A stretch of DNA of 57,822 nt from a virus (IMGVR_UViG_3300036885_000101:1-57822); one strand, 5' to 3'. Positions 10,213 through 56,661 are shown, counted from the first letter of the stretch. Notes: generated from the letters alone by a model not told the origin. Program-made: numbers and translations.

Positions 10213-11021
10213 TGAAAGAAATCAGAAATCAGGCGGGGCAATTAATGCAGGAGATTAACGATGAAGGAAAAGTCGTTCGTTACTCCGATATTTCAGGGAA
10301 AGAAAAAGTTCCTGCAACGGAATTGTGCGAGCTATGTCTCAGGCATGGTTCCGATAAATGCGGAAACGGTTACACTGAGTTTTATTCCAGATATTTTGAA
10401 CTGATCAAAACAGAAGTCAAAAAAGTTCTTGAAATCGGAGTTTCCGCTGGCGGTTCAATAAAAATGTGGCATGATTATTTTAAAAACGCCATTATCTACG
10501 GAGTAGATGCGTATCCCGATAATTGCAAGGGAATTCTTCCAGAGAAAGCAACCGAATTGTCTAACGACAGGACAATTATAAGACTTTTTGACCAAAGCAA
10601 AGTTGAAGATGTCGAAAAGTTTGAGTCGACATTTGGCAGAGATTTTGATTTGATATGCGATGATGGATCACACAAACAAAGAGATCAACAAATGTGTTTT
10701 GGAATTCTTTTCAAATTACTTAAACCAGGAAGATTCTATATATGTGAAGATTTAGTCGCGGCCGATGCTATCTATGCAAATCCTGCTTTGCGGTGGGACC
10801 CTACGGATACGGTTCATAACGATAGCACTGCAACATTCTTTGCAAATGCAATCAAAGGAATTTACGCAAGCCAATACATAGCTACGGAGCAGCTTGAATA
10901 TTTGAGACAAAATATCGAATGGATTAAATTTCTTTTTGGTTGTTCAAGTGGCGAACCTCATGCAAATCCTTTTCAATGGGGTGGACCAATTACCGTGCTT
11001 ATAAAGAAAAAGGATGTTTGA
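10212..11021 (+). CDS. Class I SAM-dependent (sugar O-)methyltransferase
   Basis: GSDK..Y, VLEIGV..GGS..MW, FDLICDDGSH and YICED motifs. Confidence 0.85.
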   Translation: MKEIRNQAGQLMQEINDEGKVVRYSDISGKEKVPATELCELCLRHGSDKCGNGYTEFYSRYFELIKTEVKKVLEIGVSAGGSIKMWHDYFKNAIIYGVDAYPDNCKGILPEKATELSNDRTIIRLFDQSKVEDVEKFESTFGRDFDLICDDGSHKQRDQQMCFGILFKLLKPGRFYICEDLVAADAIYANPALRWDPTDTVHNDSTATFFANAIKGIYASQYIATEQLEYLRQNIEWIKFLFGCSSGEPHANPFQWGGPITVLIKKKDV

Positions 11022-11866
11022 TGTATACCTTCGATTTTCTCAGAGAAGTAATTCACGGAGATAAATCCCGCGCTGCCGCCGACATCGTTATTGACGGTGA
11101 ACCGACATACGAACAGGCGCAATTTATCTGCAATAATTCATGCATCATCTTTTGCAAGACCGACTACATTTTCATGCTGTTTGAAATACTTTTAACAAGT
11201 CCTAATAAAAGATACATTCTGATAACGCACAATTCAGACTATGCAATTGATTTCAGGTATTGGGAGAACAAGCCTGACAATATTCTTCGGTGGTACGCTC
11301 TCAATGTGGCGTACAAGCATCCCGACCTTGTGCCTATCCCAAGCGGAATGGAGCGGCCTTTAGGATGTGGATATTCAAGCGATGCAAATGTTCTTTTCGA
11401 GCAAATGCAGAAGCCAAGGACAATAAAAAACCTTGCGTACATGAACCACAATTCAAATAATAATCACGGTGAAAGGGATGTCGTTGACAGCCATTTTGAG
11501 GGCAAGTCCTGGGTAACTGTGAGGAAGCATGGAACTTCTTTCAAGGATTTTATTGAGAATTGCCACAACCATAGCTTTGTTATCTCTCCTCCTGGCAATG
11601 GCATTGATTGTCATCGAACTTGGGAAGCTTTATACATGGGTGCTATACCCATAGTAAAGCGTAGCCTTGTTACTGAGGCTTTTGTTGACTTGCCTATTTT
11701 GATTGTCGAGGATTGGACAACGATCACAGAAGAAATATTGAATATAGTTTTAGAAGAGTTCAAGGAAATGAAATTTAACTATGAAAAATTAACATTGTCC
11801 TATTGGATTAATAGGATAAAATCAGATAAAATTTATTTGAAAGAGGGCGCAAATGAACAAACCTGA
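11021..11866 (+). CDS. Exostosin/GT47-like glycosyltransferase
   Basis: ILITHNSD, PIPSG and FVISPPGNGIDCHRTWEALYMGAIPIV. Confidence 0.8.
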   Translation: MYTFDFLREVIHGDKSRAAADIVIDGEPTYEQAQFICNNSCIIFCKTDYIFMLFEILLTSPNKRYILITHNSDYAIDFRYWENKPDNILRWYALNVAYKHPDLVPIPSGMERPLGCGYSSDANVLFEQMQKPRTIKNLAYMNHNSNNNHGERDVVDSHFEGKSWVTVRKHGTSFKDFIENCHNHSFVISPPGNGIDCHRTWEALYMGAIPIVKRSLVTEAFVDLPILIVEDWTTITEEILNIVLEEFKEMKFNYEKLTLSYWINRIKSDKIYLKEGANEQT

Positions 11867-12431
11867 TTTTGGCCGTGATCGGTTCGAGGGGCAAATGAAT
11901 CCTTCGGAACGGGAGATTCTTTACGACTTGGTTTTGCAGGAAAGGCCTGATGTGGTCTGCGAGATTGGAACGTGTCGCGGCGGTGGATCAACATATTTCA
12001 TTGCAAAGGCATTGCATGCCAATGGAAAAGGAAAGCTCTATACTTGCGAGAATAACAAAGAATACTATGAATACGCTCGGGCTCTTTATGCCGGTAATCC
12101 TGATTTTGCAGGGCTTGAGGAATATGTACGCTTTCATTTTGGAGATAGCGAATATTGCTTTCATCGAATATTTGAAGGTGGTTTTGATGGTGGCATTGAC
12201 ATCGTTTTTCTCGACGGCGGCGCGGACTCAATAAAAATGGTCTATGACTTTGCAATGTTCCGGCCATACATACCGATAGGAAAATGGCTTGTTATGCACG
12301 ATTGGAACAACGGGAAAAGCGATTACATAAAGCCGATATTGAATGATGATAAAGATTGGAAATTCGTCAAGCAAGAAATCGGTCTTGTTGTTTTTCAGCG
12401 CATTGCTGACATTCACGGGAGCAATTCATGA
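11853..12431 (+). CDS. Class I SAM methyltransferase (Methyltransf_24-like)
   Basis: VCEIGTCRGGGST, IDIVFLDG, VMHD. Confidence 0.85.
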   Translation: MNKPDFGRDRFEGQMNPSEREILYDLVLQERPDVVCEIGTCRGGGSTYFIAKALHANGKGKLYTCENNKEYYEYARALYAGNPDFAGLEEYVRFHFGDSEYCFHRIFEGGFDGGIDIVFLDGGADSIKMVYDFAMFRPYIPIGKWLVMHDWNNGKSDYIKPILNDDKDWKFVKQEIGLVVFQRIADIHGSNS

Positions 12432-13597
12432 AAACAAGGCTTGCCCTAAATATTATCGTTGGAGCCGGTGACGGCCCTGTTCTTAATCGCCTTATGTCAT
12501 CATATGACATGAAGAAATTATTTGATGAAATTGTCATTGTAAGAACAACGGACGATCAGGAAGTCATTTCGGTCATTAACCAATATGCCGACAAAACAAC
12601 CAAGTTTGAATGGAATACCGAAGACTTTCCTAAAGGGAACTTCGGCGGCGCTCGTGATGCGGCAAGGCTTCTGACCAATTCGGAATGGATCATGTGGCTT
12701 GATTCAGATGATATGCTCGCTTCCGAAGAGGATATGGAAAAAATATTTACTAAGATAAAATCAATGCTCGCCGCTAATTCTGACCGCGATTATTTCGTGT
12801 TACCGTACATCCTTGGCATCTCCGATAAAGGTGAACCGATGAATGTTATTTCTAGGGAGCGTATTTTCAAACGAGAATCTACAATCAAATGGGTAAAACC
12901 TATTCATGAACAACTGACAATAAATACCGAAATACACAAGCGGGCTGACTTGAACGGCCTTGATATTCTGCATTGCCCGGTAAAGACCGGCGAACAAAGC
13001 GCGTCAAGAAACATCGAAATACTTGAAAACGAATATCTGAAACCGAATAGAGAGCGGCACGACGCTTTTTATTATGGCCGTGATCTTATCCAGTTGGATA
13101 AGTGGGAGAACGCTATTTCGATCCTTGTTGATTTCATTGAGACCGCCAATGAAGATTTGAGCTGCGTTTACGATGCTTCTTTGCTCATTGCAAAGTTTTT
13201 CATGTACAAGCAATTGCCGGACAAAAAACAGACCTCGCTTTGCGAAACTACGTCACCAATTGCCGAACAGTACGCGAGGATATGCCTATCAATAACGGAA
13301 TCGAATGCGGAGCCTTATACCGTCCTTGGCGATGTTTACATATCGCAGAGACGAAATAGGGATGCAATCAGGATGTTCAAGCAGGCAATGACAAAGCAGT
13401 TCGGGACCGGGAGCCTGCAAGACCGCTCGTTCTACGAGGAAATGCCAGCACGAAGGCTTGCCGAATTGTTTGTCTGGGAGAACGAACTTGAGCAAGCGAT
13501 ATGGTATAACAAAGTGGCAATGAAGCATTGTCCCGAAGATAAGAACTTGATTGAACAGCGAAAAAAGATCATCACCAAATTGCAAGAAACGGTATGA
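12428..13597 (+). CDS. GT2 glycosyltransferase with C-terminal TPR repeats
   Basis: FGGARDAA..WIMWLDSDD, W..PIHEQL, FYYGRD, TPR-like helices. Confidence 0.88.
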   Translation: MKTRLALNIIVGAGDGPVLNRLMSSYDMKKLFDEIVIVRTTDDQEVISVINQYADKTTKFEWNTEDFPKGNFGGARDAARLLTNSEWIMWLDSDDMLASEEDMEKIFTKIKSMLAANSDRDYFVLPYILGISDKGEPMNVISRERIFKRESTIKWVKPIHEQLTINTEIHKRADLNGLDILHCPVKTGEQSASRNIEILENEYLKPNRERHDAFYYGRDLIQLDKWENAISILVDFIETANEDLSCVYDASLLIAKFFMYKQLPDKKQTSLCETTSPIAEQYARICLSITESNAEPYTVLGDVYISQRRNRDAIRMFKQAMTKQFGTGSLQDRSFYEEMPARRLAELFVWENELEQAIWYNKVAMKHCPEDKNLIEQRKKIITKLQETV

Positions 13598-18038: not shown

Positions 18039-19316
18039 ATGTCTGATTTCACATATACACTTTCTGGCGGAAACGCTACAATAACCGGGTATACCGGGGC
18101 GGGTGGTGCTGTCACAGTTCCATCAACAATTGATGGATACCCTGTTATTGCTATTGGAGATAATGCTTTTTATGGAAATGCTTTAATTACTCATGTGATT
18201 ATTTCAAGCGGAATAACAACTATTGGACAAAGTGCATTTTCTGGATGTCCTTATTTGGTTGATGTAATTATCTCGGCAACAATTACGCATTTAGGAAATT
18301 GGGCAATTAATTATTGTCCCAATCTTCTTTCTGTCACATTTTTAGGCTCTGTTCCTCCATCTCTTGATGGTGGGGTATTCGACGGTGAACATGCTGGATT
18401 TATAATTTATTATCAGCCTGGTCCATTATGGACAAATCCTTGGCATGGATACCCTACTTCACCTATTCTTTTGCCTGATGGAAAAATGAGATTTACCGAC
18501 AATAATGGTAACACTGTTGACGTTACGATACCCGAATACGGGTACAAATCTGTAATATCTTTTCCGTTTGACATTGACACGCTTGATACTGGAATAAAAA
18601 CAGTATTCGCCTATGATAATACGCTCGACAAATACCATTGTGAATGTGATTTGATTCTCAATGAAACTGATATGCTTTCCTTCAATTCATGGATGAAAGA
18701 TGCAGCACTTGGAAGGGCAAAGAATAATTGCACTTTACAGATGAATGCTAATTCGGGGTTTTTTCCTTTCACGCCGTTGCATGGAGATGCGGGAATATTC
18801 ACTGTAGGAATATTGGTATCAAAATCCGAAAAGGTTCAAGATAACCCTTTCAGATATTTCAAGATTTCAATATCAATTTTCAAGCAAAGTACATTCCCAG
18901 CATATACATTGCAGAGTCAAATAAACGAGGGAAGTTTATCAATTGGAACTGTGAACAATATCCGCTTTCCTGAAAGTTATTTCGACTCCGATGAGGATAA
19001 TTCAATACAGAGCAACGTCGATGAGAGCGGGACATTGAATTTTATTGACCGTGGTCGCATTGCTTCATCGTGGAGAACAGCAATAAAGCTTTCGGCCGGA
19101 ACCGGAAAGGCGGCGGCAATCCTGGATTACCTTATCAATACGGCTCGCGCCGGAAACTTTGCTTTGACTACTCAGGCATACCATTATGCCTTCGGACGCG
19201 ACAAGGGAAGCAATTCAGCGTATACGGTTTCATTAATACAAGATAGCATCGAAGTGACTCATGAGCTTTTCAATAAATTTGTTTTCGATCTTAACGTACA
19301 ATACATAGCAGGTTGA
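18039..19316 (+). CDS. BspA-type LRR domain fused to a distal-tail-like protein
   Basis: ATITGYTG..VTVPSTIDGYPVIAIGDNAF..ITTIGQSAFSGC repeats; follows the tape measure. Confidence 0.7.
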   Translation: MSDFTYTLSGGNATITGYTGAGGAVTVPSTIDGYPVIAIGDNAFYGNALITHVIISSGITTIGQSAFSGCPYLVDVIISATITHLGNWAINYCPNLLSVTFLGSVPPSLDGGVFDGEHAGFIIYYQPGPLWTNPWHGYPTSPILLPDGKMRFTDNNGNTVDVTIPEYGYKSVISFPFDIDTLDTGIKTVFAYDNTLDKYHCECDLILNETDMLSFNSWMKDAALGRAKNNCTLQMNANSGFFPFTPLHGDAGIFTVGILVSKSEKVQDNPFRYFKISISIFKQSTFPAYTLQSQINEGSLSIGTVNNIRFPESYFDSDEDNSIQSNVDESGTLNFIDRGRIASSWRTAIKLSAGTGKAAAILDYLINTARAGNFALTTQAYHYAFGRDKGSNSAYTVSLIQDSIEVTHELFNKFVFDLNVQYIAG

Positions 19317-19317
19317 T

Positions 19318-22300
19318 ATGAGCGAAACCGTTTACGGCGTGCAGATAAAGCTTGAAGACAGAGCTCTTCCGGTAACGGCAGGCATTGACTTCGGACTTTA
19401 TAACCGCGTATATAACCTTTCGCTCAGCATACCAAAAAACGCCACTGTCGCGCATGTGGCAACGCTTTCGATCAATCTCCTTGAAAACAGATTGCCGATT
19501 ACCATTCATGACGGCGTACATTCAGAGTCAAATATTATCACGTCGATTGATCCAACAAACGGTATATTGGGCCTGCTTTGGCCCACTACGCAAGGATACA
19601 ACATTTCAGGCGGTAAGGTACAAGCTGATTCAGTTTTCCAACTTATCCAGAATGACATAGCCGGACTTGATAGCAGTTGGAAAAGCGGCGTTCTAATGCA
19701 GGACGGAATAGGTAATTTCTCGCGCAAGATCGACTTGAAGCGAATGGGAAACATTGCATCACCAGGATCATGCACCATTGAACTGAAAAATACGAATCAG
19801 TTTCACAAGGAAATGAATGATCGTGGCGTTTATTTCAATGGACAAATTGCAAAGATTTTTAAATTCACCGGGACATCAAAATCACAAAAGTGGATAGGTG
19901 AATGTCAAAAACCTACCTGGACATCGAAGCGGTTTAAAATTCCTGTCAATGGAATTTACAACAAGAGAATATCGAACATTTCAACAGTGATAAGCAACGA
20001 TCCCGTGAGTGGAAATTACAAACTTGCCGGTGATAATGCCAATGGTAAAATAGTTCCTATCTCCCTTGGTAAACTCTATCCAGTGACCGGAGCGCCGAAT
20101 AGGTATGCGAAGTTTTTGAGAACAAGTGAAAAGCAAACAACATTGACCAACGATGATGGAGTTGGAAACTATTGCCTCCCTCGCGGTATAGATATTTTCC
20201 CCCTCATTGGATATGGTGACAGTTCGTCGACGGCGCATCTGGCATATAAGATCGAGTTTGGAACCTCTGCTGTAGGCACTTTTCAACTTGATTTATCAGG
20301 AAAATATATTCAGGTCATTGTTGGAGGTTCTTCAGACGGAACATCTTTTGTTGGGAAGTATAGGAAAATAGTAAAGCATGTTCAATTGTCAGGAACCTCG
20401 GCAAATGGATCTCCTATAATAACCGGGATTTCCAGCACTGTTGATTTTCTTGTTGGAACCAAGATAAAATGCAGTGCCGGATTTGCAAGCTCTCTTTTCG
20501 ATTATACTATACTTTCAAAGACTTCTACTACCATAACTCTTGATGCCAATTCAAATTCATCAGGTGGATTGACTGTCGTTCAGGGATATTATTTTATAAG
20601 TCAAGGTGATACTGCTTATATTGTCCTTGAAAGCTTCTTTGAAAAGGATTTGTATGCGGTATCAGGCGCGATTGATTCTCCTCCTGCTTTGAACGCATGG
20701 GTGAAAATTGTTGATATTCCTTTTGAATTTAAGGCCGATGAATGGCCGTGTGACGGATTTACTGACGAAAGCGGCGTTCCTATTGTATCAGGAGATTATC
20801 CGCGCCTTGCTGCATACGGCCATGTTGTTTCATCAAGTACGGCTCCTATAGTGCAAGGCGTTACAATTCCTGATGTAAGTTTTATTCAGATACCAACATT
20901 CGGGTATCTTGTTGATCTTTCGGCGGCCGGAAAAAACCGACTTATTATGGACTTGAAATTATTCAAAGATAGTCCAGACACAATGAGCACTTTTTCAATA
21001 TTTCCATGCAAGAATTTGACTGATTATATCGCAGCGAATTTGGGTCTTTTCGGGTTTGCTGGAGTAGTCAATAAAACAAGTGGCGGAACGGGCAACGCTT
21101 ATTCCGGTCACGGTGTTGTTGGAAATTTAGCGCAACAGATATTCTCTCCCGGCGCTTTTGACCGGGATGATAGTACCTACGAGAAAAGAATAATAGTGGG
21201 CAATTTGGAAGAGTCTTCAGATTTCAGTATTTGGTCTGCGTTTGATTTTGATTTGCCATTGGACAAATTGGTCATTGAATATGATGCCTATTATATCGGG
21301 GTAAACTTCGCTTCATCAAACGCCAATGGTCTTTATATCACCGATGGAAGATTTTTAATGATGTACCGAAGGTTTCTTGGAAACGCTAAGGTCATGAATT
21401 CAAATTTCAATTATTCTGGTTCAATTTTTTCAAAGTATATGGAAAGCCAATCCCCTTATCTGGGATTTGAAAATTTGAGCAGAATAGACAACCTTCCTGA
21501 TTATTATTATTTAAAAAGAGCATTAAGGGATAACAATAAAGCGTTCTATTTTAGTATTGATACTTCCGCTACGCATCTTTTTTCAATCACGGGATTGTCT
21601 CTTTTCAATATAAGCGACTTTACAACAATAGATAATATTAAATCAATAATAAAGGCATCGCTTGTTTATGGGATAGAGGGGGCAACAGATATAGGAATTG
21701 TTAATCAAACGGTCCGCATTATTGAGCTTGCCCTCATCTGCGAAAAATCCTTCAACATTGCCTCCGACCTCTATGCCATGTTCATCGGTCGCATTTATAA
21801 TGACACCTTCGGCGGGCGCAAAACAACAACTGATTACCCAAGCGACCCGGTGAACATGCTGGAAATGATTTGCCGCTTGCAGGGCGGTTCCGAGAACGAT
21901 TTCACCGACGTTAATGGCTGGGGCCATTCTTATTGGAAAAATGCGCTTATAAAAACAACGGGGGATGGCAGCTTCGATGATGCGGTTGACCCTGACCTTG
22001 CCTCTATCAAAACCCTTGATTGTGGCGGTCAAATCCTTGACTACAAGAACGCACAAACCAACGATATCAAGCGAAAGCTCTGCTATCAATTTGGTATGGC
22101 TAACTGGGTAGATGCAAACGGAAACGAGTGCGTTAAGCCGATAAGGAAGGGAATTCATTCTCCCACCGACATCATAACGATTTATGACATTCTTGACCGT
22201 TCATCCATCGAAGTAAATTATCCTGACCCTGTTGACCTGTATGCAGAGCCTTTCGTGCAATACAACAAAAATCCGGCAACAGGGAATTATGATTCGATTA

Positions 22301-29846: not shown

Positions 29847-31976
29847 ATGAAAAAATTAATTATTATTTTACTTTGTTTTGGCTTGTCATTTGCAACAAAC
29901 TTAACGAAACACATACGATATGGTGGAGATTATCGAAGCGTACAAGGGTGCTTGGCGGCAAATACCGGAATGACGCAGGATACTCTTAATATTTCTGTGG
30001 ATAGCTGTTTTGTTGATACCGCCATAAATACAAACAGTTATTCAAAAGTAATTAATATTTTTGCCTCATCCGGGAACTATTCAACGACAGGGGCATGGGA
30101 CCCGACAAAGTATTATATCAACGAAGTGGGAGCTGGCGCTACTCCGGCCATTAATATTAAAAGCACTCATGTTAATCTTTATAATTTACAGATAGAAGCA
30201 ACCTCTCCTTCAGCAACAGGAGAGGATTGCATACAATTCACATTCGGTTCCGCAGGCGGGGTCCATCGATTTCATAATCTCATTATAAAGGGACACAACA
30301 ACGGAACATATTCACAATCTGGCATTAACTTCAAAACCACTGCCGAAAATTTATACATGTGGAATTGCATACTTTACAATTTCGGGACAGTTTCTTCCAC
30401 GTACCCGATTTCCGGTAACTCATATGCCGATAGTGTATGGATGTATAATTGCGATTTGATTGGCGGTGTTTTTGGAGTATATACCGGCGGTGCCACTGGA
30501 GCTCAATGGATAGTAAAAAACTGTTATTGTGGCGGCGGCTCATCAGATCGTTATTACGCATCAACCTATTTAACAAAAACAACTTGCGCGTCATCGGACG
30601 GAACAGGCTCTACAGGGTTGATCAATATTGCGTATTCAACCGCGAATTTTACCAATGTTACCGGTGGAAGCGAAAATTTTGCATTGACAAGCGGAAGTGC
30701 CTTGCGAGGGACGGGAACTTATACCGGCGGTGATCTTGCCCCAATGAATTTTACTACAGATATAACGGGGTACGCTTATACAAATCCACCGTCGATAGGC
30801 CCATTTGAATACCCGGCCTCGTATTGCGTCACTACAGTTTCAGCAACGGCGGGAGGCTCGATAACCACTCCGGCGACGGGCAAGGATTCAAGCGTTTGCG
30901 GTGGAGCGGTTTCTATCGTCGCGGCAGCGAACACGGGCTATAGTTTCAACGGGTGGACAGCGACGGGGTCCGTAACTTTTGTCAATGCGGCGTTGACCAC
31001 GACCACGTTTACGAGCAGCGCCACGGGCGGGGCGATCACGGCCAATTTCATCGCCGCGCCCGGCCCGATCAGCTATACTGGCGGCAACATCTCAGCAACC
31101 TACGGCCTCGGCGTTGCGGTGGACTCTGTATGGCATACGATGACTATGAGTAACGCAGGAGGGGCTTTGGATAGCGTCCGCAGTCATCCGGCGCTCTCTA
31201 CATGGGGATTGACCCTCGGCGCGGACGGATCGATCTCCGGCACACCCACGACGTATACGCCGGGAGATTCCGCGTTGACGGATACCATAATCGGATACAA
31301 CGCGATAGGCTCCCAAAAATGCACGACATACGTTACAATCCAGATTTTGCACCAGGGCGGCGTGTGGACCTACGATCGCCTCACCGTGGACACGATGAGC
31401 CTGTATACCATGCAAGTCTACGCGGGCACGGGTGGAATCGTTTCCCCGTCCAGCGTGACGGACAGCCTGAGCCACCCGTTTAGCGCCATGGCAATCCCGG
31501 CAGCGTATCACGTCGTCGGATCGCCTGTATGGTCCCTACGTGCGGGCGGTACTGTGACCGTCAACGCGGCGGCAGGGAGTTTTCGTCTGTTCGGCCCAGA
31601 CACGGCGGATGCGGCGTTTTCGTGGGCCACGCCGGTCGCGCCCACGCTCTACACGCCCAACCAGAACGACAGCAACCAAGCGACGAATCTCAATCTTGTA
31701 TGGAGGTCGAACACAGCCGATAGTGTGTATTATCTCTGGTACGACACGACGCTTTCCTTCAACAGTCCGTTTCTTGTCAAGGACACGCTCGCGGACACAT
31801 CAAAAAACGTGATTCTCGGCCTGACAAACTCGTGGTACCACTGGAAGGTTGCCGCTGGAAACAACGGCGGGACAACAAGCTCCTTTTCGTCGCCCAGGAC
31901 GTTTAAGACCATGAGCGCGTACAGGAGGCGGCATGGCGGGATGAATATAGGGATCGGCATCGGAATCGGCTTTTAA
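29847..31976 (+). CDS. Secreted beta-helix + InlB-B/Ig/Fn3-like protein; candidate head fibre
   Basis: MKKLIIILLCFGLSFA; DITG..PSIGPFEY; ANTGYSFNGWT; YHWKVAA; C-terminal MNIGIGIGIGF. Confidence 0.7.
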   Translation: MKKLIIILLCFGLSFATNLTKHIRYGGDYRSVQGCLAANTGMTQDTLNISVDSCFVDTAINTNSYSKVINIFASSGNYSTTGAWDPTKYYINEVGAGATPAINIKSTHVNLYNLQIEATSPSATGEDCIQFTFGSAGGVHRFHNLIIKGHNNGTYSQSGINFKTTAENLYMWNCILYNFGTVSSTYPISGNSYADSVWMYNCDLIGGVFGVYTGGATGAQWIVKNCYCGGGSSDRYYASTYLTKTTCASSDGTGSTGLINIAYSTANFTNVTGGSENFALTSGSALRGTGTYTGGDLAPMNFTTDITGYAYTNPPSIGPFEYPASYCVTTVSATAGGSITTPATGKDSSVCGGAVSIVAAANTGYSFNGWTATGSVTFVNAALTTTTFTSSATGGAITANFIAAPGPISYTGGNISATYGLGVAVDSVWHTMTMSNAGGALDSVRSHPALSTWGLTLGADGSISGTPTTYTPGDSALTDTIIGYNAIGSQKCTTYVTIQILHQGGVWTYDRLTVDTMSLYTMQVYAGTGGIVSPSSVTDSLSHPFSAMAIPAAYHVVGSPVWSLRAGGTVTVNAAAGSFRLFGPDTADAAFSWATPVAPTLYTPNQNDSNQATNLNLVWRSNTADSVYYLWYDTTLSFNSPFLVKDTLADTSKNVILGLTNSWYHWKVAAGNNGGTTSSFSSPRTFKTMSAYRRRHGGMNIGIGIGIGF

Positions 31977-34898: not shown

Positions 34899-35081
34899 AT
34901 GAAACTTCACGAATCTGCTTTGACAGAAAAACAGATTGCAGCTCTTAAGAAAATGTATGATACTGGTAAGTTTTCTCACAGAGATTTAGCGAGAATGGTT
35001 AATGTGGATAAAAGTCAAATAAGCAGGTATTTTCAAAAGATGAAACCGATTACCACGGAGGATCAATCATGGAAACAGTAA
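34899..35081 (+). CDS. Small HTH DNA-binding protein
   Basis: FSHRDLARMVNVDKSQISR. Confidence 0.75.
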   Translation: MKLHESALTEKQIAALKKMYDTGKFSHRDLARMVNVDKSQISRYFQKMKPITTEDQSWKQ

Positions 35082-35986
35082 CAAAAGTAACAAACGGGAT
35101 ACAGGAAGCCGCAAAGGAGCCGATAGAAGCCGTAGTATCAAAAAAGGTGTTCCCGGTAAAGAAGAAATCCCTGCTTGCAGAAGCAATGGTAAAATGCCAG
35201 AGCCTTATCAATCCGGCAGGAAAGAGCGGGGAGAACAAGTTTGACCACTACAAGTATTCTACTCTTGAGGATTACTGCAATCAGCTTAAGCCGGCGCTAA
35301 CCGCTTCAGAGCTTGCGGTGTACTTCAATCAGGACGAGATTACAGACAAAGGTATCCGGGAAACATCGACAGGCAAGAAGGAATACGTAATCAGGGTGAA
35401 GCTTACCGCGACGATCATGCATAGTTCCGGGGAATGTATGGATGTGGTAGGATACGGGGAAGGCCAGGATCGAGGTGACAAGGCTATCTACAAAGCGATT
35501 ACAGGGTGCAAGAAGTACCTGCTTGCTAATGCGTTCAACATCCCGACGACTGACGACCCGGAAGTAGACTCACATGATGCTGAAGAAAAGTTACCGCCGA
35601 AAGGCCAGAGATTCAAGGACGAACAGGCGGTAGTGTCCAGAGCGTTGGTAGATCAAGAGAAAAAGGCCGCAGAATCTCCTCAGAAGGCCCAGGACGCAGG
35701 CAAACCAGTACCGGGAAGCCAACTGCCAGCCAAGAAGAAAGAACCCTCTGACGAGGACCAGGCAAAGGACGGACTGATCATAACGGCCCAGGTGAAAGCA
35801 TTGCAGAAAAAGCGTACTCAGTTCAAAATACCGGATGCTAAATGGAAAGCATGGCTATTTGCGAAATACGCTATCCTGACAGCGTGGAAGATAAAGCAGG
35901 AATGGTTTGCAGCGATAGATGGAACTGTGACACTTAACCCAGCAGAGATAATCGAATTTGTTACAGCAGATGATGTGGCGCAGTAG
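35069..35986 (+). CDS. erf: ERF-family single-strand annealing protein
   Basis: KSGENKFDHYKY, GEGQDRGDKAIYKAITGCKKYLLANAFNIPTTDDPE. Confidence 0.9.
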   Translation: METVTKVTNGIQEAAKEPIEAVVSKKVFPVKKKSLLAEAMVKCQSLINPAGKSGENKFDHYKYSTLEDYCNQLKPALTASELAVYFNQDEITDKGIRETSTGKKEYVIRVKLTATIMHSSGECMDVVGYGEGQDRGDKAIYKAITGCKKYLLANAFNIPTTDDPEVDSHDAEEKLPPKGQRFKDEQAVVSRALVDQEKKAAESPQKAQDAGKPVPGSQLPAKKKEPSDEDQAKDGLIITAQVKALQKKRTQFKIPDAKWKAWLFAKYAILTAWKIKQEWFAAIDGTVTLNPAEIIEFVTADDVAQ

Positions 35987-35995
35987 AGACATGAG

Positions 35996-36024
35996 TTTAC
36001 ATAATAAAAAAGACGATTTAAAAT
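35996..36024 (+). promoter_or_regulatory. Sigma70 promoter upstream of the cassette array (Pc-like)
   Basis: TTTACA-N17-TAAAAT, about 80 bp before the first GTT core. Confidence 0.65.
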
Positions 36025-36152
36025 GAAAAATAAATTAAACTATATAAATCATAATGATAACAATTGCAGACGACATATTGTAAAACCCGTCTGATGGATA
36101 TTACCTGTTGGCTGCAATGCCCGGTGAACCATGTAAAATAGGAGGTCGTCAA

Positions 36153-36500
36153 ATGATTAATGATAGGGTTTTAAAGTCAAGTGACATTATGCTGCTTGGT
36201 GATATTCTCGTTACAATAAACGGTTCTCAAATTCCTGTTATCGGGTATTCCGGCCAAGTTGTTTCTGATGCTGTCAACGATCATACAAACTTTATCGAAT
36301 GCCGCCGACCTCAAAAAGTAGAGGAGTCACCGGGCACAGTTCCGCCAGTAGGCGCAGCCAACAGCCAAAGTGTGACGGCGCTGAGTGAAATAGTTTGGGA
36401 TTGGCTCACTGAAAATGCTGTCGATGTTATGGTTGACAAGTGTGACGTTAATATGCTAATTCAGCGCCTAAATGCCGGAATATCGGCACTTCACACTTAG
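36153..36500 (+). CDS. Cassette 1 hypothetical protein
   Basis: GGAGG RBS; reads through the attC-like arm. Confidence 0.6.
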   Translation: MINDRVLKSSDIMLLGDILVTINGSQIPVIGYSGQVVSDAVNDHTNFIECRRPQKVEESPGTVPPVGAANSQSVTALSEIVWDWLTENAVDVMVDKCDVNMLIQRLNAGISALHT

Positions 36501-36553
36501 GCGAACGTTGGTTGCAATAGCGGCCAAGGACTTTACAAATAGGAGCGCGGCTT

Positions 36554-36823
36554 ATGAATATAATTTGCGATAAGTGTAAATATGTTTCTGGTTTTTCATC
36601 TGAATTTCCGTGCAATAGATGCGTTGTAATTGCCATTAATTGTTTTGTTCCAAGCAATGCCGCGCTCAATTCTGAGGAGTTGGCCGCTACAGTTCCGGCA
36701 GTAGCCGCAGCCAACAAACAAAGTGACAAAATTAAACCTTGTGGCTGGCAATATTCTTGTGGATACGTTCGGGTCAATAAGGTGTGCAAGGGTCCGACGT
36801 GTAATATATACGATCCGGTTTAA
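36554..36823 (+). CDS. Cassette 2 Cys-rich hypothetical protein
   Basis: AGGAG RBS; CxxC motifs. Confidence 0.6.
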   Translation: MNIICDKCKYVSGFSSEFPCNRCVVIAINCFVPSNAALNSEELAATVPAVAAANKQSDKIKPCGWQYSCGYVRVNKVCKGPTCNIYDPV

Positions 36824-36887
36824 CTTCGCACGTTTGTCAAACGTTGGCTGCAATGCCCGGTGAACCATTTAAACAGGAGGCGCGGGA

Positions 36888-37286
36888 ATGAGAAAGATAC
36901 ATTTGCAAATGGATGGGAATCAGATAGTGGCGACGTGGGACGATTTTGATTGTCTTGCTGTTTCTCCGGCAGGCTTTGGCGACAATATCGGCGAAGCCGT
37001 AAGCGCGTTGATAAACGAAACGGCTTCATATGCACTTAACGGCATCGTATCAAGCATTGAGAACGCAGCACACCTCACAAATAGTAGCCGTATTACAGAG
37101 GCAAGAGGTGAAGACCGCGCCTCTAAATCAGAGGAGTCACCGGGCACAGTTCCCGGAGTACCGGCAGCCAACACGGCCAGCCCGCAATTGCTGGCATTGG
37201 TTGCCCTTATGAAAGTATCGGCTACAGTATCAACGACAGCGGTTTTAAAAGTGATCTACGATGAGTTCCCGCAACTGCGGGCGTAG
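36888..37286 (+). CDS. Cassette 3 hypothetical protein
   Basis: AGGAGG RBS; DGNQIVATWDDF..SPAGFGD. Confidence 0.65.
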   Translation: MRKIHLQMDGNQIVATWDDFDCLAVSPAGFGDNIGEAVSALINETASYALNGIVSSIENAAHLTNSSRITEARGEDRASKSEESPGTVPGVPAANTASPQLLALVALMKVSATVSTTAVLKVIYDEFPQLRA

Positions 37287-37339
37287 GCGAAACGCGTTGT
37301 GCGAAATGCCCGTTTACTTTTTAATTATAGGAGGTGCTT

Positions 37340-37552
37340 GTGCAGTTAGCAATCGACATTCTTAGATCGGAGCTTGAGTCTTACAAGCAGTGTTTGCGCA
37401 CCGAAGGTAAGTATAGCGTGTATCCGGAGTATCGTGGCCCGAACGTGGATTTTGCCCGTAACATAGCTGAGTTGCAGGACGCAATAGCGCACCTCTTAAA
37501 AGCTGTGGAAGTAAACGGTCACATCGCACAACAAATAAATGGTGTTCGCTAA
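37340..37552 (+). CDS. Cassette 4 hypothetical protein
   Basis: AGGAGG before GTG 37340. Confidence 0.55.
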   Translation: MQLAIDILRSELESYKQCLRTEGKYSVYPEYRGPNVDFARNIAELQDAIAHLLKAVEVNGHIAQQINGVR

Positions 37553-37908
37553 CGCACATGCGGAGTACCGCACGTCACTATTTATCGAACGATGGGCGCG
37601 CTGGAATAAGAGATAAGAGAAGACACCCAGGTTTACCTAACAAGGTATTCAATTTTGACTCGCATGCTCTCGCGAGTAGGTTGCTTTATGAAACATTCAC
37701 TTTTTCAGGAATACAGTGTTCGGAATGGCGTAAAACGTCGTCTTTGCGTACCCATAGTGATCGAAGACTCCCACGCGAACTTCGAGGGTCGACGGTGTGT
37801 GAGCTTTAGGGATTGCGCCATTCCCTTTCTTAGCGAGTCGCAAGCTGGCGGGCCTATTGCTCGCAAATTAATACCGACGTTAGGCCGCTTAAAAACAAAG
37901 GAGAAATT

Positions 37909-38187
37909 ATGAAAGTCGTAGCATTGGAGATTAAAAAGCGCGAAAGTTACGATAGTGAATATCCGAATGAAATTGTTGGCGTTGTGCAAATAACCGGCGA
38001 AACGGGTAAAATGGAGGTTCGTCTTCGCCCTAAAACCGTTGCCGAAATTTTCAGAATGTGCAAATCCGATGTTCAAATGGTTGCCAATTACAACGCCAAC
38101 CAAGCGGCTTTGGCTTGTGAAAATGTCGCCGGTACTATCGAACTTCAGGTCGAAAACAACGATCTAAAACAAATCGCGGCGGCCTAA
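37909..38187 (+). CDS. Cassette 6 hypothetical protein
   Basis: AAGGAG RBS; stop codon lies inside the GCCTAAC inverse core, as in classical cassettes. Confidence 0.7.
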   Translation: MKVVALEIKKRESYDSEYPNEIVGVVQITGETGKMEVRLRPKTVAEIFRMCKSDVQMVANYNANQAALACENVAGTIELQVENNDLKQIAAA

Positions 38188-38249
38188 CAACCGCTTCAAT
38201 TCTGACTCGTGGGCGGATACAGGCTACAAAAAATTATAGGAGGCGCTAA

Positions 38250-38426
38250 ATGTTTGAAGAGTTTTGTCGTGTGTGTAAAAACAAACATAAATTTATAATT
38301 TGCGGTAATTGTAAAACAAAAATGGCCCCTCCGCCATATTATGAATTTAGCGCCTCAATTGAGGACGGCAAACCATCCGCAGCGGGACAAGATCCTTTAC
38401 CCGTTAGCGGCGCGAAAACTGAATAG
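38250..38426 (+). CDS. 58-aa CxxC protein nested inside the attC-like loop of cassette 6
   Basis: AGGAGG RBS; MFEEFCRVCKNKHKFIICGNCK (not in the ORF track). Confidence 0.55.
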   Translation: MFEEFCRVCKNKHKFIICGNCKTKMAPPPYYEFSASIEDGKPSAAGQDPLPVSGAKTE

Positions 38427-38486
38427 CTTATCACTCGCAAATTAAGCGGACGTTAGGGTGCGGCAAAGACTAAATAGGAGCGCGGC

Positions 38487-38753
38487 ATGATAAACGCAGA
38501 ACAAGGCATAGAGCGGTTTGAAGCACATTTTATTAATTGTGATGGAATAAACTCCATAAACGCGGATCTTATGAAAGAGGCAATTGACGCAATAAGAGCC
38601 GCGCTCCAAGAGAATAATAATACCGCTGTAGCTTTGCTCGATGAGATTGAAAACGCCCTCGGCGATTGCAAGGACAACTTAGACTTTTCTTGCCGAGTCA
38701 CGGAAATTTTACAACGGAGGCACGATGAAAAACAAAATCAAAAAATTGATTGA
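38487..38753 (+). CDS. Cassette 7 protein a
   Basis: AGGAG RBS. Confidence 0.6.
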   Translation: MINAEQGIERFEAHFINCDGINSINADLMKEAIDAIRAALQENNNTAVALLDEIENALGDCKDNLDFSCRVTEILQRRHDEKQNQKID

Positions 38754-39192
38754 ATCATTTTTAGACAACGAAATGGAAACAGACGAATTAGTTGATAACA
38801 TAGATGCAATTTGTCGCGCCTCCAACACAGAAATGAATATAAATAATTATTTGGCGGCACGTCGGTTGACAATAGAATCAAGCCTTGCCGCCGAAATACT
38901 CGCCGGAAATACGGTCAAGCAGCAATGCGAACAGACGGCGTTAGCAGAGATTTCGGCGATGGAACAAACATTTTTTAAGAGCGCCGCCAGCGAGCGGGAA
39001 ATTTCCCTTTCCGGGTGTGCATCGAGTGGTGCGTGCGGTTATACCGGATATCCAAGAATGTGCTATTCTACTAGTCCATGCGAGCATAAGATTGCGCTGA
39101 AAGCCGCAATCAACAATGGCATCAATCTTGACTCGCCACGTTTGCCAATCGGTAGCGGCGAAAATAAGAGTCTTTTGGGTACGCAGCATTAA
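38725..39192 (+). CDS. Cassette 7 protein b
   Basis: GGAGG RBS; runs into the attC-like arm. Confidence 0.6.
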   Translation: MKNKIKKLIESFLDNEMETDELVDNIDAICRASNTEMNINNYLAARRLTIESSLAAEILAGNTVKQQCEQTALAEISAMEQTFFKSAASEREISLSGCASSGACGYTGYPRMCYSTSPCEHKIALKAAINNGINLDSPRLPIGSGENKSLLGTQH

Positions 39193-39323
39193 GTCGGTTA
39201 CTGTCTATCAATGCGGTTGTAGGCTCGCAAATTATGCCTACGTTAGCGCATTTTTGGCTGCGGGAAATAAAACAAGATCGGGCGGCATAGGCCCGGCGTC
39301 ATGCCGGGCGAGGAGAATATAAA

Positions 39324-39629
39324 ATGAAACTTATTTGCACATTGTCTAAACCCGCATACGTTCAAAAAACAATGAAAGAATTATGCGAAAGAAAAGATAT
39401 TTCTTTGGTTCAAATTTTGGATAATTCTGAAGTAAAAGCGGAGTCACCGGGCACAGTTCCCGGAGTACCGGCAGCCAACACGGCCAGCCTAAAATTGCCG
39501 AGCACAGAAGATGTTTGGAATTATGTATATAATCATCATGAATTTTGCGAAGATTTTGCAAGAGAAAACGAAGCTCGTGATATATCAAAACTTGTTTACG
39601 AATTTATATATCGGCAACTTCAGGCGTAG
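39324..39629 (+). CDS. Cassette 8 hypothetical protein
   Basis: AGGAG RBS; shares ESPGTVPGVPAANTAS with cassette 3. Confidence 0.6.
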   Translation: MKLICTLSKPAYVQKTMKELCERKDISLVQILDNSEVKAESPGTVPGVPAANTASLKLPSTEDVWNYVYNHHEFCEDFARENEARDISKLVYEFIYRQLQA

Positions 39630-39689
39630 CCGGAACATTGCACGCAATAGGCCGCGAACCATATTGTAAACGCGCCAAGGAGAAAACAA

Positions 39690-39986
39690 ATGACAGTTTT
39701 TAAAGCCATAAAAAGCATTTGCTCTATGCGAATAAATGATGTGTCGGGCAATCGTTTACGGGTAAAGTATCGTTGGGTATGTGCAAAGAAAAAGTGTTCT
39801 TGTTTGTGTGCTGAATCAAATTGCGAAATAGTAAAAAGAATTGGCGCGTTAAAAAATGCGGAGTCGCTGCCTACAGTTCGCCCGAAGCGGGCCGCGCAAC
39901 AACGCAAGGAAGCAATATTACGCTTTTGTGGAAACTGTCAACGCAATGATGATAGGTCAAGCGAAAAGGTAAATTATCATAGATAA
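39690..39986 (+). CDS. Cassette 9 Cys-rich hypothetical protein
   Basis: AAGGAG RBS. Confidence 0.55.
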   Translation: MTVFKAIKSICSMRINDVSGNRLRVKYRWVCAKKKCSCLCAESNCEIVKRIGALKNAESLPTVRPKRAAQQRKEAILRFCGNCQRNDDRSSEKVNYHR

Positions 39987-40075
39987 CTTAATATTAGCGT
40001 GGCCGCATATGCGGTCGTATCACTCGCTGCTTAAGCGGGCGTTAGGCCGCAGCGGGGAACTAAATAGGAGGCGTG

Positions 40076-40456
40076 ATGAAACTTGATGTAAACAAAATAC
40101 TGGCGTTGCGGGCGATTTATAGTAGAGAAACAGGATGCCCAACATCGTGCCCTGACGGGAAGTTATTTACAATTCAATACACAACATGGCTCGAAGCTCG
40201 CGCCTCCAATACAGAACAGAATAATTCCGCTGTAGCTTTGCTTGCTGATGTTTATAGGCACATAGAAACGGGTGAGATTAAAATGGGTTGTTTGCGCGGT
40301 TTGAAACATGACATTGCAGTCTGGGCGCAATCCCCGCTGCCGCCTAACAATGGCATCAATCTTGACTCGCCACGTTTGCCAACAGTAAATCCGTCAAGTG
40401 AAATTGACGTGGGTGGAGTTGGTATTGGCCCTCGCGGTTGTGGCGACATAGACTAA
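40076..40456 (+). CDS. Cassette 10 hypothetical protein
   Basis: AGGAGG RBS; shares NNGINLDSPRLP with cassette 7b. Confidence 0.6.
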   Translation: MKLDVNKILALRAIYSRETGCPTSCPDGKLFTIQYTTWLEARASNTEQNNSAVALLADVYRHIETGEIKMGCLRGLKHDIAVWAQSPLPPNNGINLDSPRLPTVNPSSEIDVGGVGIGPRGCGDID

Positions 40457-40639
40457 TAATGCGGTTGCGCCTATGAACACAACGGAACTTTTATTTGAAT
40501 ACGGAATAGCTATCGTTTTTCTTATTGTCTGCATTTTTATAATACGAAGCGTAACCGTATTGTATGCGTTTCAGCGAATTAACTCAACGTTAATCACTTT
40601 TGCAATATGGATGATTATGTGTGTAAAAGAAAAAACTAA

Positions 40640-41047
40640 ATGTATAAAATAAAATACCGTGGCATATCTAAAGGCGGTAAGATCACGCTTGATCCAGGCC
40701 ACTTGGAAGCTTATAATGCAGCAGTGAGACGCTTAGAGGGTCAAAAGATAGAGGTAACGATATGCAAGCGCCAGAAGGCCAATACGCGCAGCGAGCAAAA
40801 GTATTTCTACGCTGTGATCGTGAAGATGATAGCCGATGAAATAGGTGAGAGCGAGACGCGAGCTTTTGAGATTATACAGGCGCAGTTTTTTGAATATGAG
40901 GATGCTAACGGACGGAAGTACATACGGTCAACGGCGCTTGGTGAATGGACAACGGTGGAGTGGGAAAGTCGGATGCAGGATATCCGGCAGTGGGCGCAGG
41001 ACTATTTAAACTTAACGATTCCAACGCCGAACGAAACAGACTATTGA
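40640..41047 (+). CDS. NinB/Orf-like protein
   Basis: RSEQKYFYAVIV..RSTAL..TVEW..I..WA..L.IPTPNE. Confidence 0.65.
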   Translation: MYKIKYRGISKGGKITLDPGHLEAYNAAVRRLEGQKIEVTICKRQKANTRSEQKYFYAVIVKMIADEIGESETRAFEIIQAQFFEYEDANGRKYIRSTALGEWTTVEWESRMQDIRQWAQDYLNLTIPTPNETDY

Positions 41048-41072
41048 CAGCGTGTTGAAATAGTGGTATATT
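41044..41072 (+). promoter_or_regulatory. Sigma70 promoter of the replication operon
   Basis: TTGACA-N17-TATATT. Confidence 0.8.
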
Positions 41073-55728: not shown

Positions 55729-56661
55729 ATGAACATTCTCATTACAGGAGGCAGCGGTTTTATCGGTCGCGCTGTTGTATCGGAACTACTTGATGCAAAG
55801 CACGATGTCACAATCCTTGATACAAAGATGCCTGACTTTCCCGGACGTGTCCATTATTTTGCATGCGACATACTGCAATCACTCGATGATCTGTTCCTGA
55901 AAATACAGCCTGAAATCGTGATTCACCTTGCCGCATGTACTGACCCTACGGCGGGACCGGATCATTTGTACAAGGTGAACGTCAAAGGGACAAAGAACGT
56001 CGTTGATGCTTGCGAGAACTTCGGTGTACGGCGGATAATCTTTGCATCAACCGGTATGGTCTATGGAAAGAATTCTGATTTGGAAGTTACGGAACAGACC
56101 GAAGTCGCGCCGGTATCGTTGTACGCTTTTACCAAAGCAGTAGGGGAAAGCCTTGTGCGTGCAAGTTCGCTTGAACATATCATCTTTCGTATGTTCAACG
56201 TGGCTGGGCCTGGCTTCACGCATAACCCGGCGCGGTATCTTGTCCCCGTGGCCCTGGCGGCGACGCAAGAGAAGCCGTTGCGCTTATTCACTGGACAAAA
56301 CGATATACGAGATTATGTTCATGTAAATGATGTTGCAAAAGCTTATATTAAAGGTATCGAAACATGCGAAAAGGGCGAAACCAACAATATCGGCACCGGG
56401 ATACCTACACGACTTGGGAAAGTGCTCTCTATGATTGCCGATGAAAGAGACTATCCAGTTCCGACAATCATTGACCACAATGCGCCAGGACTAAACAAGC
56501 AAGAAGGCGTGAACTTAACGGCTGATGCATCGAAGGCAAGGGATTTGCTTGGATGGAGACCGGAAAAGAATATTGGCGACATTATCCGTGATTCCGTGGC
56601 GTGGTGGTCTTTACATATTGGCAACAAAATGCCTAAAGGGATCATGGAGTACGCGAAATGA
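55729..56661 (+). CDS. NAD-dependent sugar epimerase/dehydratase (GalE-like)
   Basis: TGGSGFIG, HLAA, YAFTK (YxxxK), FNVAGP, RDYVHVNDVA. Confidence 0.92.
   Translation: MNILITGGSGFIGRAVVSELLDAKHDVTILDTKMPDFPGRVHYFACDILQSLDDLFLKIQPEIVIHLAACTDPTAGPDHLYKVNVKGTKNVVDACENFGVRRIIFASTGMVYGKNSDLEVTEQTEVAPVSLYAFTKAVGESLVRASSLEHIIFRMFNVAGPGFTHNPARYLVPVALAATQEKPLRLFTGQNDIRDYVHVNDVAKAYIKGIETCEKGETNNIGTGIPTRLGKVLSMIADERDYPVPTIIDHNAPGLNKQEGVNLTADASKARDLLGWRPEKNIGDIIRDSVAWWSLHIGNKMPKGIMEYAK

Follow-up and report, generated by a model that had tools for sequence, protein, structure and literature searches.

The described systems closest to the present locus are the integron cassettes with their attC sites and the mRNAs whose Shine-Dalgarno sequence (SD) is trapped by a distant complement. 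Concerning the cassettes, one study reports 17 phage CALINs—clusters of attC sites without an integrase—and gives GTTRRRY/RYYYAAC as the attC core consensus (PMC9892861), and a proposal that attC hairpins affect the translation of the downstream cassette is taken up in another (ref. 15 of PMC11511950). Concerning the mRNAs, anti-SD interactions that are distal or lie within the open reading frame (ORF) are described for the type I toxin mRNAs aapA3 and hok, the internal complementary sequence of E. coli gnd and the kinetic window of the MS2 maturation gene (PMC6733600). The locus in question is the array of small genes at 36107-40640 of IMGVR_UViG_3300036885_000101:1-57822, a stretch of 57,822 nucleotides (nt), hereafter the window, which is a complete virus record with direct terminal repeats (57.8 kb, 44.6% G+C). 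The SD of most of these genes is complementary to a segment of the gene's own ORF, and the resulting helix is the innermost part of a long interrupted stem with an attC-like outer end.

The array holds 13 small ORFs in series, with starts from 36153 to 40473, placed between the gene of an Erf-like annealing protein (Erf recombinase gene; 35069-35986, assigned by Pfam/PHROG scans) and the core gene 40640. The initial annotation had claimed for most of these cassette genes an SD complementary to a segment of the same ORF, and all the eight pairs it named have been found where it placed them:

36142-36148 (GAGGTCG) with 36306-36312 (CGACCTC), plus strand: SD and anti-SD of cassette 1
36543-36551 (GAGCGCGGC) with 36659-36667 (GCCGCGCTC), plus strand: SD and anti-SD of cassette 2
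36877-36885 (GAGGCGCGG) with 37115-37123 (CCGCGCCTC), plus strand: SD and anti-SD of cassette 3
37331-37337 (GAGGTGC) with 37489-37495 (GCACCTC), plus strand: SD and anti-SD of cassette 4
38240-38251 (GAGGCGCTAAAT) with 38345-38356 (ATTTAGCGCCTC), plus strand: SD and anti-SD of gene 38250-38426
38477-38607, plus strand: SD helix of gene 38487-38753, 38477-38486 (GGAGCGCGGC) with 38598-38607 (GCCGCGCTCC)
38716-38823, plus strand: SD helix of gene 38725-39192, 38716-38725 (GGAGGCACGA) with 38814-38823 (TCGCGCCTCC), one A.C mismatch, the SD lying within the upstream ORF
40067-40076 (GGAGGCGTGA) with 40198-40207 (TCGCGCCTCC), plus strand: SD and anti-SD of gene 40076-40456, one G.U

Beyond these eight, two more genes (39690 and 40473) have a helix at or beside the ribosome-binding site (RBS); none was seen in genes 37688, 37909 and 39324 or in the core gene 40640.

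The pairing clearly exceeds chance. Within the window, the longest perfect complement between positions -20 to -1 and +20 to +320 of each gene was compared for 14 genes of the region—the 13 array genes and, as a conservative choice, the core gene 40640—and for the 69 other genes. A perfect complement of at least 9 nt is present in 5/14 of the former and 0/69 of the latter, one of at least 7 nt in 10/14 and 5/69, respectively, and the duplex z-scores of the two sets differ as well (Mann-Whitney p = 2.8e-4). A second count covered every gene called in the arrays of nine loci (65 genes), the control being 4160 swapped pairs, which include paralogues with the same helix. Runs of at least 9 nt within the own gene occur in 23/65 array genes versus 1.75% of the swapped pairs, and those of at least 10 nt in 11/65 versus 0.43%. 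There are 40 distinct 5'-strand sequences across the nine loci. Of the 29 helices with at least 8 bp, 26 have a 5' strand whose last base falls at -5 to +2 relative to the start codon (median -2), the remaining three reaching -12, and the 3' strand of the RBS helices begins at +76 to +271.

Repeat finding and duplex folding identify the anti-SD as a strand of the innermost helix (H4) in a long-range interrupted stem of the order GTTG-H1, H2, H3, H4, in which the leader is complementary to a block of 60-80 nt in the middle of the ORF of the same gene. Enclosed by this stem are the RBS, the start codon and the sequence coding for the N-terminal part; a second hairpin, over the C-terminal part, comes next. 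The 5' arm consists of (A)AC|GTTG-H1, CAAT, H2, ACC, an A/T-rich unpaired stretch, the SD with its spacer (H4) and the start codon, a two-pair H3 being placed between H2 and the A/T-rich loop. The 3' arm, situated within the ORF, consists of H4', an A-rich stretch, GGAG, H2', often the motif ACAGTTC with a 4-bp mini-hairpin closing an AGTA loop, and H1' ending in CAAC. The individual elements, from the first cassette to the last, are as follows:

36107-36148, plus strand: 5' arm of cassette 1, with H1 36107-36115 (GTTG junction), H2 36118-36127, an A/T-rich internal loop and H4 (SD and spacer) 36142-36148; the gene starts at 36153
36306-36362, plus strand: 3' arm of cassette 1 within the ORF, with H4' 36306-36312, GGAG, H2' 36327-36336, the AGTA-loop mini-hairpin 36342-36354 and H1' 36354-36362 (ending in CAAC)
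36354-36515, plus strand: attC-like C-terminal hairpin of cassette 1, with R''-like 36354-36362, L''-like 36368-36375, a coding loop, L'-like 36491-36498, the stop codon 36498-36500 and R'-like 36507-36515
36507-36715, plus strand: N-terminal hairpin of cassette 2, with H1 36507-36515, H2 36518-36526, H4 36543-36551, start 36554, H4' 36659-36667, H2' 36681-36689, the mini-hairpin 36696-36707 and H1' 36707-36715
36843-37172, plus strand: N-terminal hairpin of cassette 3, with H1 36843-36851, H2 36854-36863, H4 36876-36885, start 36888, H4' 37115-37124, H2' 37137-37146, the mini-hairpin 37153-37164 and H1' 37164-37172
37296-37532, plus strand: hairpin of cassette 4, with different, compensated helices, H1 37296-37304, H2 37310-37319, H4 37331-37337, GTG start 37340, H4' 37489-37495, H2' 37509-37518 and H1' 37524-37532
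37879-38188, plus strand: stem GTTAGGCCGC / GCGGCCTAAC around the whole gene 37909-38187, without an SD helix
38182-38458, plus strand: canonical-looking attC-type stem GCCTAAC-AA-CCGCTT ... AAGCGG-AC-GTTAGGG, with gene 38250-38426 and the 12-bp SD helix of that gene (38240-38251 / 38345-38356) in its loop
39440-39479, plus strand: 3' arm only, in gene 39324-39629, matching the 3' arm of cassette 3 from GGAG on; its 5' counterpart is degenerate, and an SD helix is lacking
39669-39850, plus strand: 10-bp helix of gene 39690-39986, 39669-39678 / 39841-39850, ending at the 5' edge of the SD; the junction TTGCACGCAAT is at 39638
40041-40348, plus strand: outer stem of gene 40076-40456, 40041-40058 / 40331-40348 (GTTAGG.../...CCTAAC), with the SD helix 40067-40076 / 40198-40207 about 120 nt from the outer 3' strand
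40456-40563, plus strand: 15-position helix of gene 40473-40652 over -17 to -3, 40456-40470 / 40549-40563

As RNA, the minimum free energy (MFE) structure of 36838-37180 yields every helix drawn for cassette 3 (z -4.74, with 0/100 shuffles folding as well), and the stem 38182-38458 also folds better than expected (z -2.96; 1/200 shuffles). The attC-like hairpin 36354-36515, folded as DNA, reaches z -1.98, and 9/200 shuffles fold as well. The global MFE structure of 36095-37600 is a string of successive long-range hairpins taking in nearly all the non-loop sequence. The helix 40456/40549 was counted as 12 Watson-Crick and three sense-strand G.U pairs, another count giving 11 Watson-Crick and two bridged G.U pairs. 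An attC-type reading of 39100-39256 was discarded, the fold not supporting it (z -0.47), and so were antisense genes started by the complement of the anti-SD, since by eye no start codon follows.

The further claim that the two strands of the SD pair co-vary has proved correct, compensated sequence changes being seen both within the window and between phages. Among cassettes 1-4, H1, H2 and H4 each change in a compensated fashion. A MAFFT alignment of 23 whole units misplaced H2 and H4 and shifted four rows at the 3' end, and the co-variation was therefore established from scripts instead. With a degenerate 27-letter motif of the 3' arm, three related viral contigs (G001-G003) and seven metagenome contigs were retrieved, the array genes of which obey the same pairing rule with new sequences, e.g. 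perfect SD-to-ORF complements of 11, 12 and 15 nt. The gene at 36888 and its orthologue, gene 468 of locus L052, are about 80% identical in the loop (by eye); between them H4 exhibits a G-C to T-A change, and H2 and H2' have been swapped concordantly, each pair matching. In other samples, the substitution 36149 T>G extends H4 of gene 1. All three reading frames are used for the CAAC motif (16/4/2 of 22), which is therefore conserved as nucleic acid, not as peptide.

The 4-bp mini-hairpin with the AGTA loop recurs in the 3' arms (36342-36354, 36696-36707, 37153-37164 and 39459-39470) and once after gene 4 (37569-37580). Its stems are compensated as well (CGCC/GGCG, CGGC/GCCG and CCGG/CCGG), and other samples contain a compensatory pair of single-nucleotide polymorphisms (SNPs), 36345 C>G with 36352 G>C; the element could be a protein-binding site.

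Concerning the junctions between cassettes, the sequence that follows CAAC pairs with the one preceding the next GTTG, i.e. with the end of the same gene (mean z 3.95, n=21), whereas no pairing is seen with the sequence on the upstream side of its own GTTG (z -0.13, n=26). Each gene therefore corresponds to two successive hairpins, and the ownership of the pairing flips at AAC|GTTG. The GTTG.../...CAAC arrangement with at least 7 pairs was found in 22 of the 42 units examined, in addition to the cassette at 37296 that was set by hand, and GCCTAAC/GTTAGG sites are located at 38182-38188, 38452-38458, 40041-40047 and 40342-40348. The conserved AAC (R'') and GTT (R') stand at the ends of an imperfect palindrome, with R'' first on the coding strand. 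By eye, GTTAGGC fits the full consensus GTTRRRY/RYYYAAC, and the common GTTGGCT, GTTGTGC and GTTGCAC deviate from it at positions 5-6. If the GTTG/CAAC boxes are included, the C-terminal hairpin is arranged as R''-spacer-L''-loop-L'-spacer-R', the second repeat pair thus being present, and the same layout is found in the attC sites of the fragment of a Vibrio chromosomal integron compared here. The array ORFs run through R'', L'', the loop and L', the stop codon being 6-19 nt before R' and the span from R'' to R' being about 70 to 165 nt; a canonical attC lies downstream of the ORF and measures 57-141 bp, a description that the array sites do not fit.

The ownership flip, the ends of a shared cassette and the loose ends of contigs all place the cassette boundary at G|TT. 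The shared cassette, 36507-36842, has a counterpart in G003 with about 93% identity (by eye); the homology starts and stops at two GTTG sites and both neighbours differ. In contigs of other runs labelled as peat metagenomes, the positions 36107, 36507 and 39638 are the exact starts of variant neighbours, others beginning near 36511, 39632 and 39909, and one contig in another sample joins 36366 to 39492, creating a hybrid of the N-module of gene 1 and the C-module of gene 39324. Different relatives and different samples thus have different arrays, the breaks being located at the junction as well as within the arms. The apparent skips of some contigs (36884 to 37113, 39685 to 39860 and 36545 to 36675) may represent divergent orthologues with arms better conserved than the loops, rather than replaced loops. 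A degenerate junction is seen after gene 4 at 37590-37600, with AACGATGGGCG in place of AACGTTGGGCG, which may be a dead cassette boundary; no convincing gene was recognized in 37553-37687.

Based on these features, it appears that the array is best explained as a series of gene cassettes of the integron type, inserted between the Erf gene and the core gene. In the array-less relative L030, the homologues of Erf (62% identity) and of gene 40640 (60% identity) have nothing between them, the former overlapping the start of the latter, and the 4.65-kb array is therefore an accessory insertion. No tyrosine recombinase (PF00589) was detected in the complete window genome (G000) or in G001-G003, nor by the Pfam/PHROG scans of the window; L030 (record G004) encodes one at 18550-19400 (E 1e-25). 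Lacking an adjacent integron integrase, the array is at most CALIN-like.

As to what H4 does, the favoured reading, to which a probability of roughly 45% is given, is that in the mRNA it forms a cassette-borne mask of the RBS—acting through a kinetic window or through coupling—and that the outer helices are recombination junctions. In this model, the outer helices (H0, H1) would serve the exchange of cassettes and half-cassettes at the DNA level. The leader alone being unstructured, the RBS would be free while the first ~100-270 nt are transcribed, which at a transcription rate of ~50 nt/s takes a few seconds, and the in-ORF arm, once made, would close it. Later initiation would need the stem to be melted by ribosomes already on the message or by those ending the upstream cistron 6-19 nt before H1, the unpaired A/U-rich loop beside the SD being a possible standby site. 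Each cassette would thus bring a position-independent throttle on its own translation.

Several computed features point in this direction. The 5' arm alone is unstructured, 197/200 shuffles folding at least as well. The predicted energy for opening the RBS does not distinguish the array from other genes when only the prefix -45 to +45 is folded (median 5.5 versus 5.8 kcal/mol, p 0.69); with +300 nt included, the medians are 8.1 and 5.8 kcal/mol, respectively (p 0.009). The rise on adding the downstream arm is 2.4 kcal/mol for the array and 0.2 kcal/mol for the other genes (medians of a thermodynamic prediction, p 0.011), reaching at least 5 kcal/mol in 6/14 region genes. H4 follows the SD and the start codon and does not abut H2, a conserved unpaired A/T-rich loop separating it from H2/H3. 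It is also kept where it is detached from the junction helices (genes 38250, 38725, 40076 and 40473), i.e. in an attC-type loop (38240/38345), in the upstream ORF (38716/38814) or ~120 nt off the outer strand (40067/40198), and a junction stem without H4 exists as well (37879/38179); H4 and the junction stem are therefore separable. Among phage-borne Vibrio integron cassettes no comparable enrichment is seen, runs of at least 8 nt being found in 2/15 cassette genes versus 2/30 others, and by eye no best run resembles an SD helix. The three sense-strand G.U pairs of the helix 40456/40549 and the occurrence of CAAC in all three frames speak for the same reading.

Other observations weigh against a role of H4 in translation. 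Three of the 13 array genes of the window (37688, 37909 and 39324) and 42/65 across the loci lack a run of at least 9 nt. Wobble pairs of the whole arms have no strand bias (sense G.U versus A.C 9 vs 8 and 7 vs 6 in two counts); for the RBS helices alone, the numbers are 9 and 4 in 38 helices, which is not significant (one-sided binomial ~0.13, calculated by hand). Moreover, there are few G.U pairs in total, which is what a palindrome acting at the DNA level, or copying in the recent past, would lead one to expect. An opening cost of at least 10 kcal/mol is predicted for 4/14 region genes and also for 11/69 other genes, the predicted occlusion thus being moderate, and gene 38487, despite its perfect 10-bp helix, has an opening cost without any rise. 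The contigs of the RNA-library run X20 cover only 36351-36511, 38714-38864, 38957-39107 and two short pieces, and transcription is not shown by these. Finally, in a circular single-stranded cassette the same helix would just lengthen the attC-like stem, the pairing not requiring any role of RNA. The translational timer proposed in the initial annotation is compatible with the unstructured 5' arm, the RBS opening cost, the tracking of the start codon by the helix and the retention of the helix away from the junction helices; the predicted occlusion is moderate, and the wobble pairs do not single out RNA.

It was also suggested there that the complementarity might be purely part of a fold of single-stranded DNA. 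The larger fold has been borne out and extended, since the anti-SD belongs to the inner helix of an interrupted stem of 30-45 bp, in which the other helices co-vary and the outer end is the attC-like junction; the word "purely" defines a rival that seems rather unlikely. H4 would then be the distal part of an extended folded recombination site, including the SD only because the whole leader lies in the stem, and in a circular or single-stranded cassette H0-H1-H2-H4 would combine into a single long stem, which the N- and C-terminal coding loops would close and which would be recognized by a host integron-type integrase or a structure-specific enzyme. Such a site would account for the flip of pairing ownership exactly at AAC|GTTG, the two GTTG sites bounding the cassette shared with G003, the divergence of variant contigs at 36107, 36507 and 39638, the geometry matching the canonical Vibrio attC sites and the predominance of Watson-Crick pairs with wobbles free of strand bias; integrase-less attC clusters of phages, some of which recombine with IntI1, are known (PMC9892861). 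It fits less well with the absence of a tyrosine recombinase from the complete window genome and the three other array-bearing records, the only one being in the array-less relative, and with H4 itself, which is set off from H2/H3 by the conserved unpaired A/T-rich loop, always tracks the start codon, occurs in an attC-type loop, in an upstream ORF and 120 nt from an outer stem, and is missing from canonical cassettes. Moreover, breaks are seen also after CAAC and within the arms, which suits homologous exchange as well as site-specific cutting. A joint claim—that one palindrome does two jobs, being in DNA the exchange site for genes and half-genes and in mRNA the pair of arms that masks the ribosome site, so that an attC-like site is translated and recombination proceeds without a phage integrase—looks improbable when taken as a whole; as a part of it, N- and C-terminal modules would be joined by an arm-encoded linker in a manner resembling exon shuffling, each new module bringing its own throttle.

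The remaining alternatives have less in their favour. That the chain of hairpins, at the RNA level, shields the polycistronic early transcript from nucleases or offers processing sites of the RNase III type, with the SD pairing as a by-product, is very improbable: the string of long-range hairpins in the MFE structure of 36095-37600 and the lack of terminator-like sites at the stop-codon/GTTG junctions agree with it, but it leaves unexplained why the strongest and most perfect helix always covers the SD and spacer and why ownership flips specifically at the junction, and cleavage in both arms would cut coding sequence. Similarly, there is a slim chance that the arms are just short homologies by which Erf, the exonuclease and NinG swap N- and C-terminal modules, the complementarity being incidental or a relic of a cassette origin. 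The contig joining 36366 to 39492 (gene 1 N-module with gene 39324 C-module), orthologous N-loops between different arms, the presence of Erf, exonuclease and NinG in the phage and a CAAC frame common to 16/22 units, permitting in-frame swaps, are all in line with this idea; direct repeats would, however, suffice for it, and neither the compensatory change between arms 100-270 nt apart nor the compensatory SNP pair of the mini-hairpin is predicted by it.

Compared with integron cassettes, the array resembles them in being a series of small, promoterless-looking genes of the same direction, in its GTT/AAC boxes at the boundary and an imperfect R''-spacer-L''...L'-spacer-R' palindrome on the coding strand, and in that the cassette start is complementary to its own R'', not to that of the neighbour. 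With the phage CALINs it shares a phage carrier without integrase (PMC9892861). A methyltransferase of the MT-A70 type heading the array in one relative is a further likeness to integrons and CALINs. In contrast to attC, the array stem continues for ~35 bp beyond the R box, through the leader and as far as the start codon; its partner strand and the attC-like site as a whole are part of the ORF, which stops in the L'-R' spacer; conservation seems limited to GTTG/CAAC, in place of the full GTTRRRY/RYYYAAC; and break points are found also after CAAC and in the arms. Like the attC hairpins of the above-mentioned proposal, the present hairpins are cassette-borne and would modulate translation in a polycistronic array, but there the attC of the upstream cassette acts locally (PMC11511950), whereas here the coding sequence of a gene pairs with its own SD over 100-270 nt.

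By analogy, the array may work like the anti-SD systems of gnd, the type I toxins and MS2 without being a member of those families. In common (PMC6733600) are the SD trapped by a far-downstream complement, the co-variation supporting the helix and the timing of folding versus transcription deciding on ribosome loading—the last only predicted here—and the gnd element, at about codon 66, lies in a position like those of the array anti-SDs (+76 to +271 nt; PMC6733600). Those, however, are single genes, unlike the present family of unrelated mobile ORFs, each with its own compensated pair, and in the array the helix forms the innermost section of a conserved stem of several helices, which is linked to the cassette junctions. 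Moreover, no antisense RNA or 3' processing is evident for the array.

The T4-type phages provide another comparison. There, the RBS of accessory genes lies in a hairpin, and repeated promoter/stem-loop modules flank small ORFs in a plastic region; masking is by an upstream strand, and the RBS becomes free through the use of a promoter located within the hairpin. The masking strand of the array is, by contrast, downstream in the ORF, and its repeats are inverted as well as direct. It should be mentioned here that the product of gene 40473-40652 consists of 59 amino acids and is strongly hydrophobic, with two likely membrane helices (by eye); together with its closed RBS, the gene looks like a type I toxin or holin-like arrangement. 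The initial annotation had suggested that the timer could limit toxic products; by eye, this is the sole toxin-like gene of the array.

Concerning the genomic setting, nearly all genes of the window are on the plus strand, and the Pfam/PHROG scans assigned a major head protein, terminase, portal, exonuclease, replication initiator, DnaB, NinG and SSB. The 13 array proteins and the product of the core gene 40640 have no significant family in Pfam and PHROGs, and among 14 proteins of the relatives Pfam gave none except for MT-A70 before the G003 array. That gene, an adenine methyltransferase preceding the G003/G001 array (locus L039 of record G003, 7767-8411, minus strand; E 3e-23), has a C-terminal tail with the CAAC-plus-flank motif; the first GTTG junction comes next, as though the methylase were the first cassette in its own right. 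A promoter-like site lies just 5' of the array:

35996-36024, plus strand: TTTACA-17-TAAAAT, a consensus match alone

No terminator-like site was matched at the junctions between array genes, and the best sigma-70-like site of the region is found after the core gene 40640, ahead of the replication genes (41044-41072, TTGACA-17-TATATT with TG, 11/12). Elsewhere, a cluster of glycosyltransferase and methyltransferase domains within the structural module and a nucleotide-sugar epimerase near the portal gene (8749-13597 and 55729-56661) may indicate glycosylated virion proteins, and large proteins with BspA-type leucine-rich repeats and an InlB B-repeat domain (18039-19316 and 29847-31976) are probably tail-associated.

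The array phages come from runs labelled as peat and wetland metagenomes. A blastn search of 36000-40700 against the INPHARED phages gave no match, no relatives were found among viral contigs by the Erf and DnaB proteins, and the scan of the window at the gathering threshold of Rfam, which contains no attC model, produced 0 hits. Judged by their flanks, all 26 loci from a 16-mer scan of viral contigs were chance matches; of those retrieved with the degenerate motif, the same applies to two of six viral loci (L035, L036), both genome loci (a Halanaerobium nucleoside phosphorylase-like gene) and seven of 14 metagenome loci. The search of species genomes with the protein of gene 36554 gave 154 pattern hits, 0 of them confirmed, and thus revealed no bacterial home of the cassettes.

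If the mRNA reading is true, the arrays would represent a device of natural origin, portable and independent of sequence, by which genes shuffled horizontally are insulated and limited in their translation; it would apply throughout the family and not just to single genes, and dozens of natural compensatory variants are available. If, on the other hand, the DNA reading is true, the range of integron-type sites would widen to include coding sequence, stems that greatly exceed the R and L boxes in length and integrase-less phages, which bears on how cassettes and attC sites arise and move. On either reading, the arrays represent a hot spot for the exchange of accessory genes and protein domains in uncultured phages.

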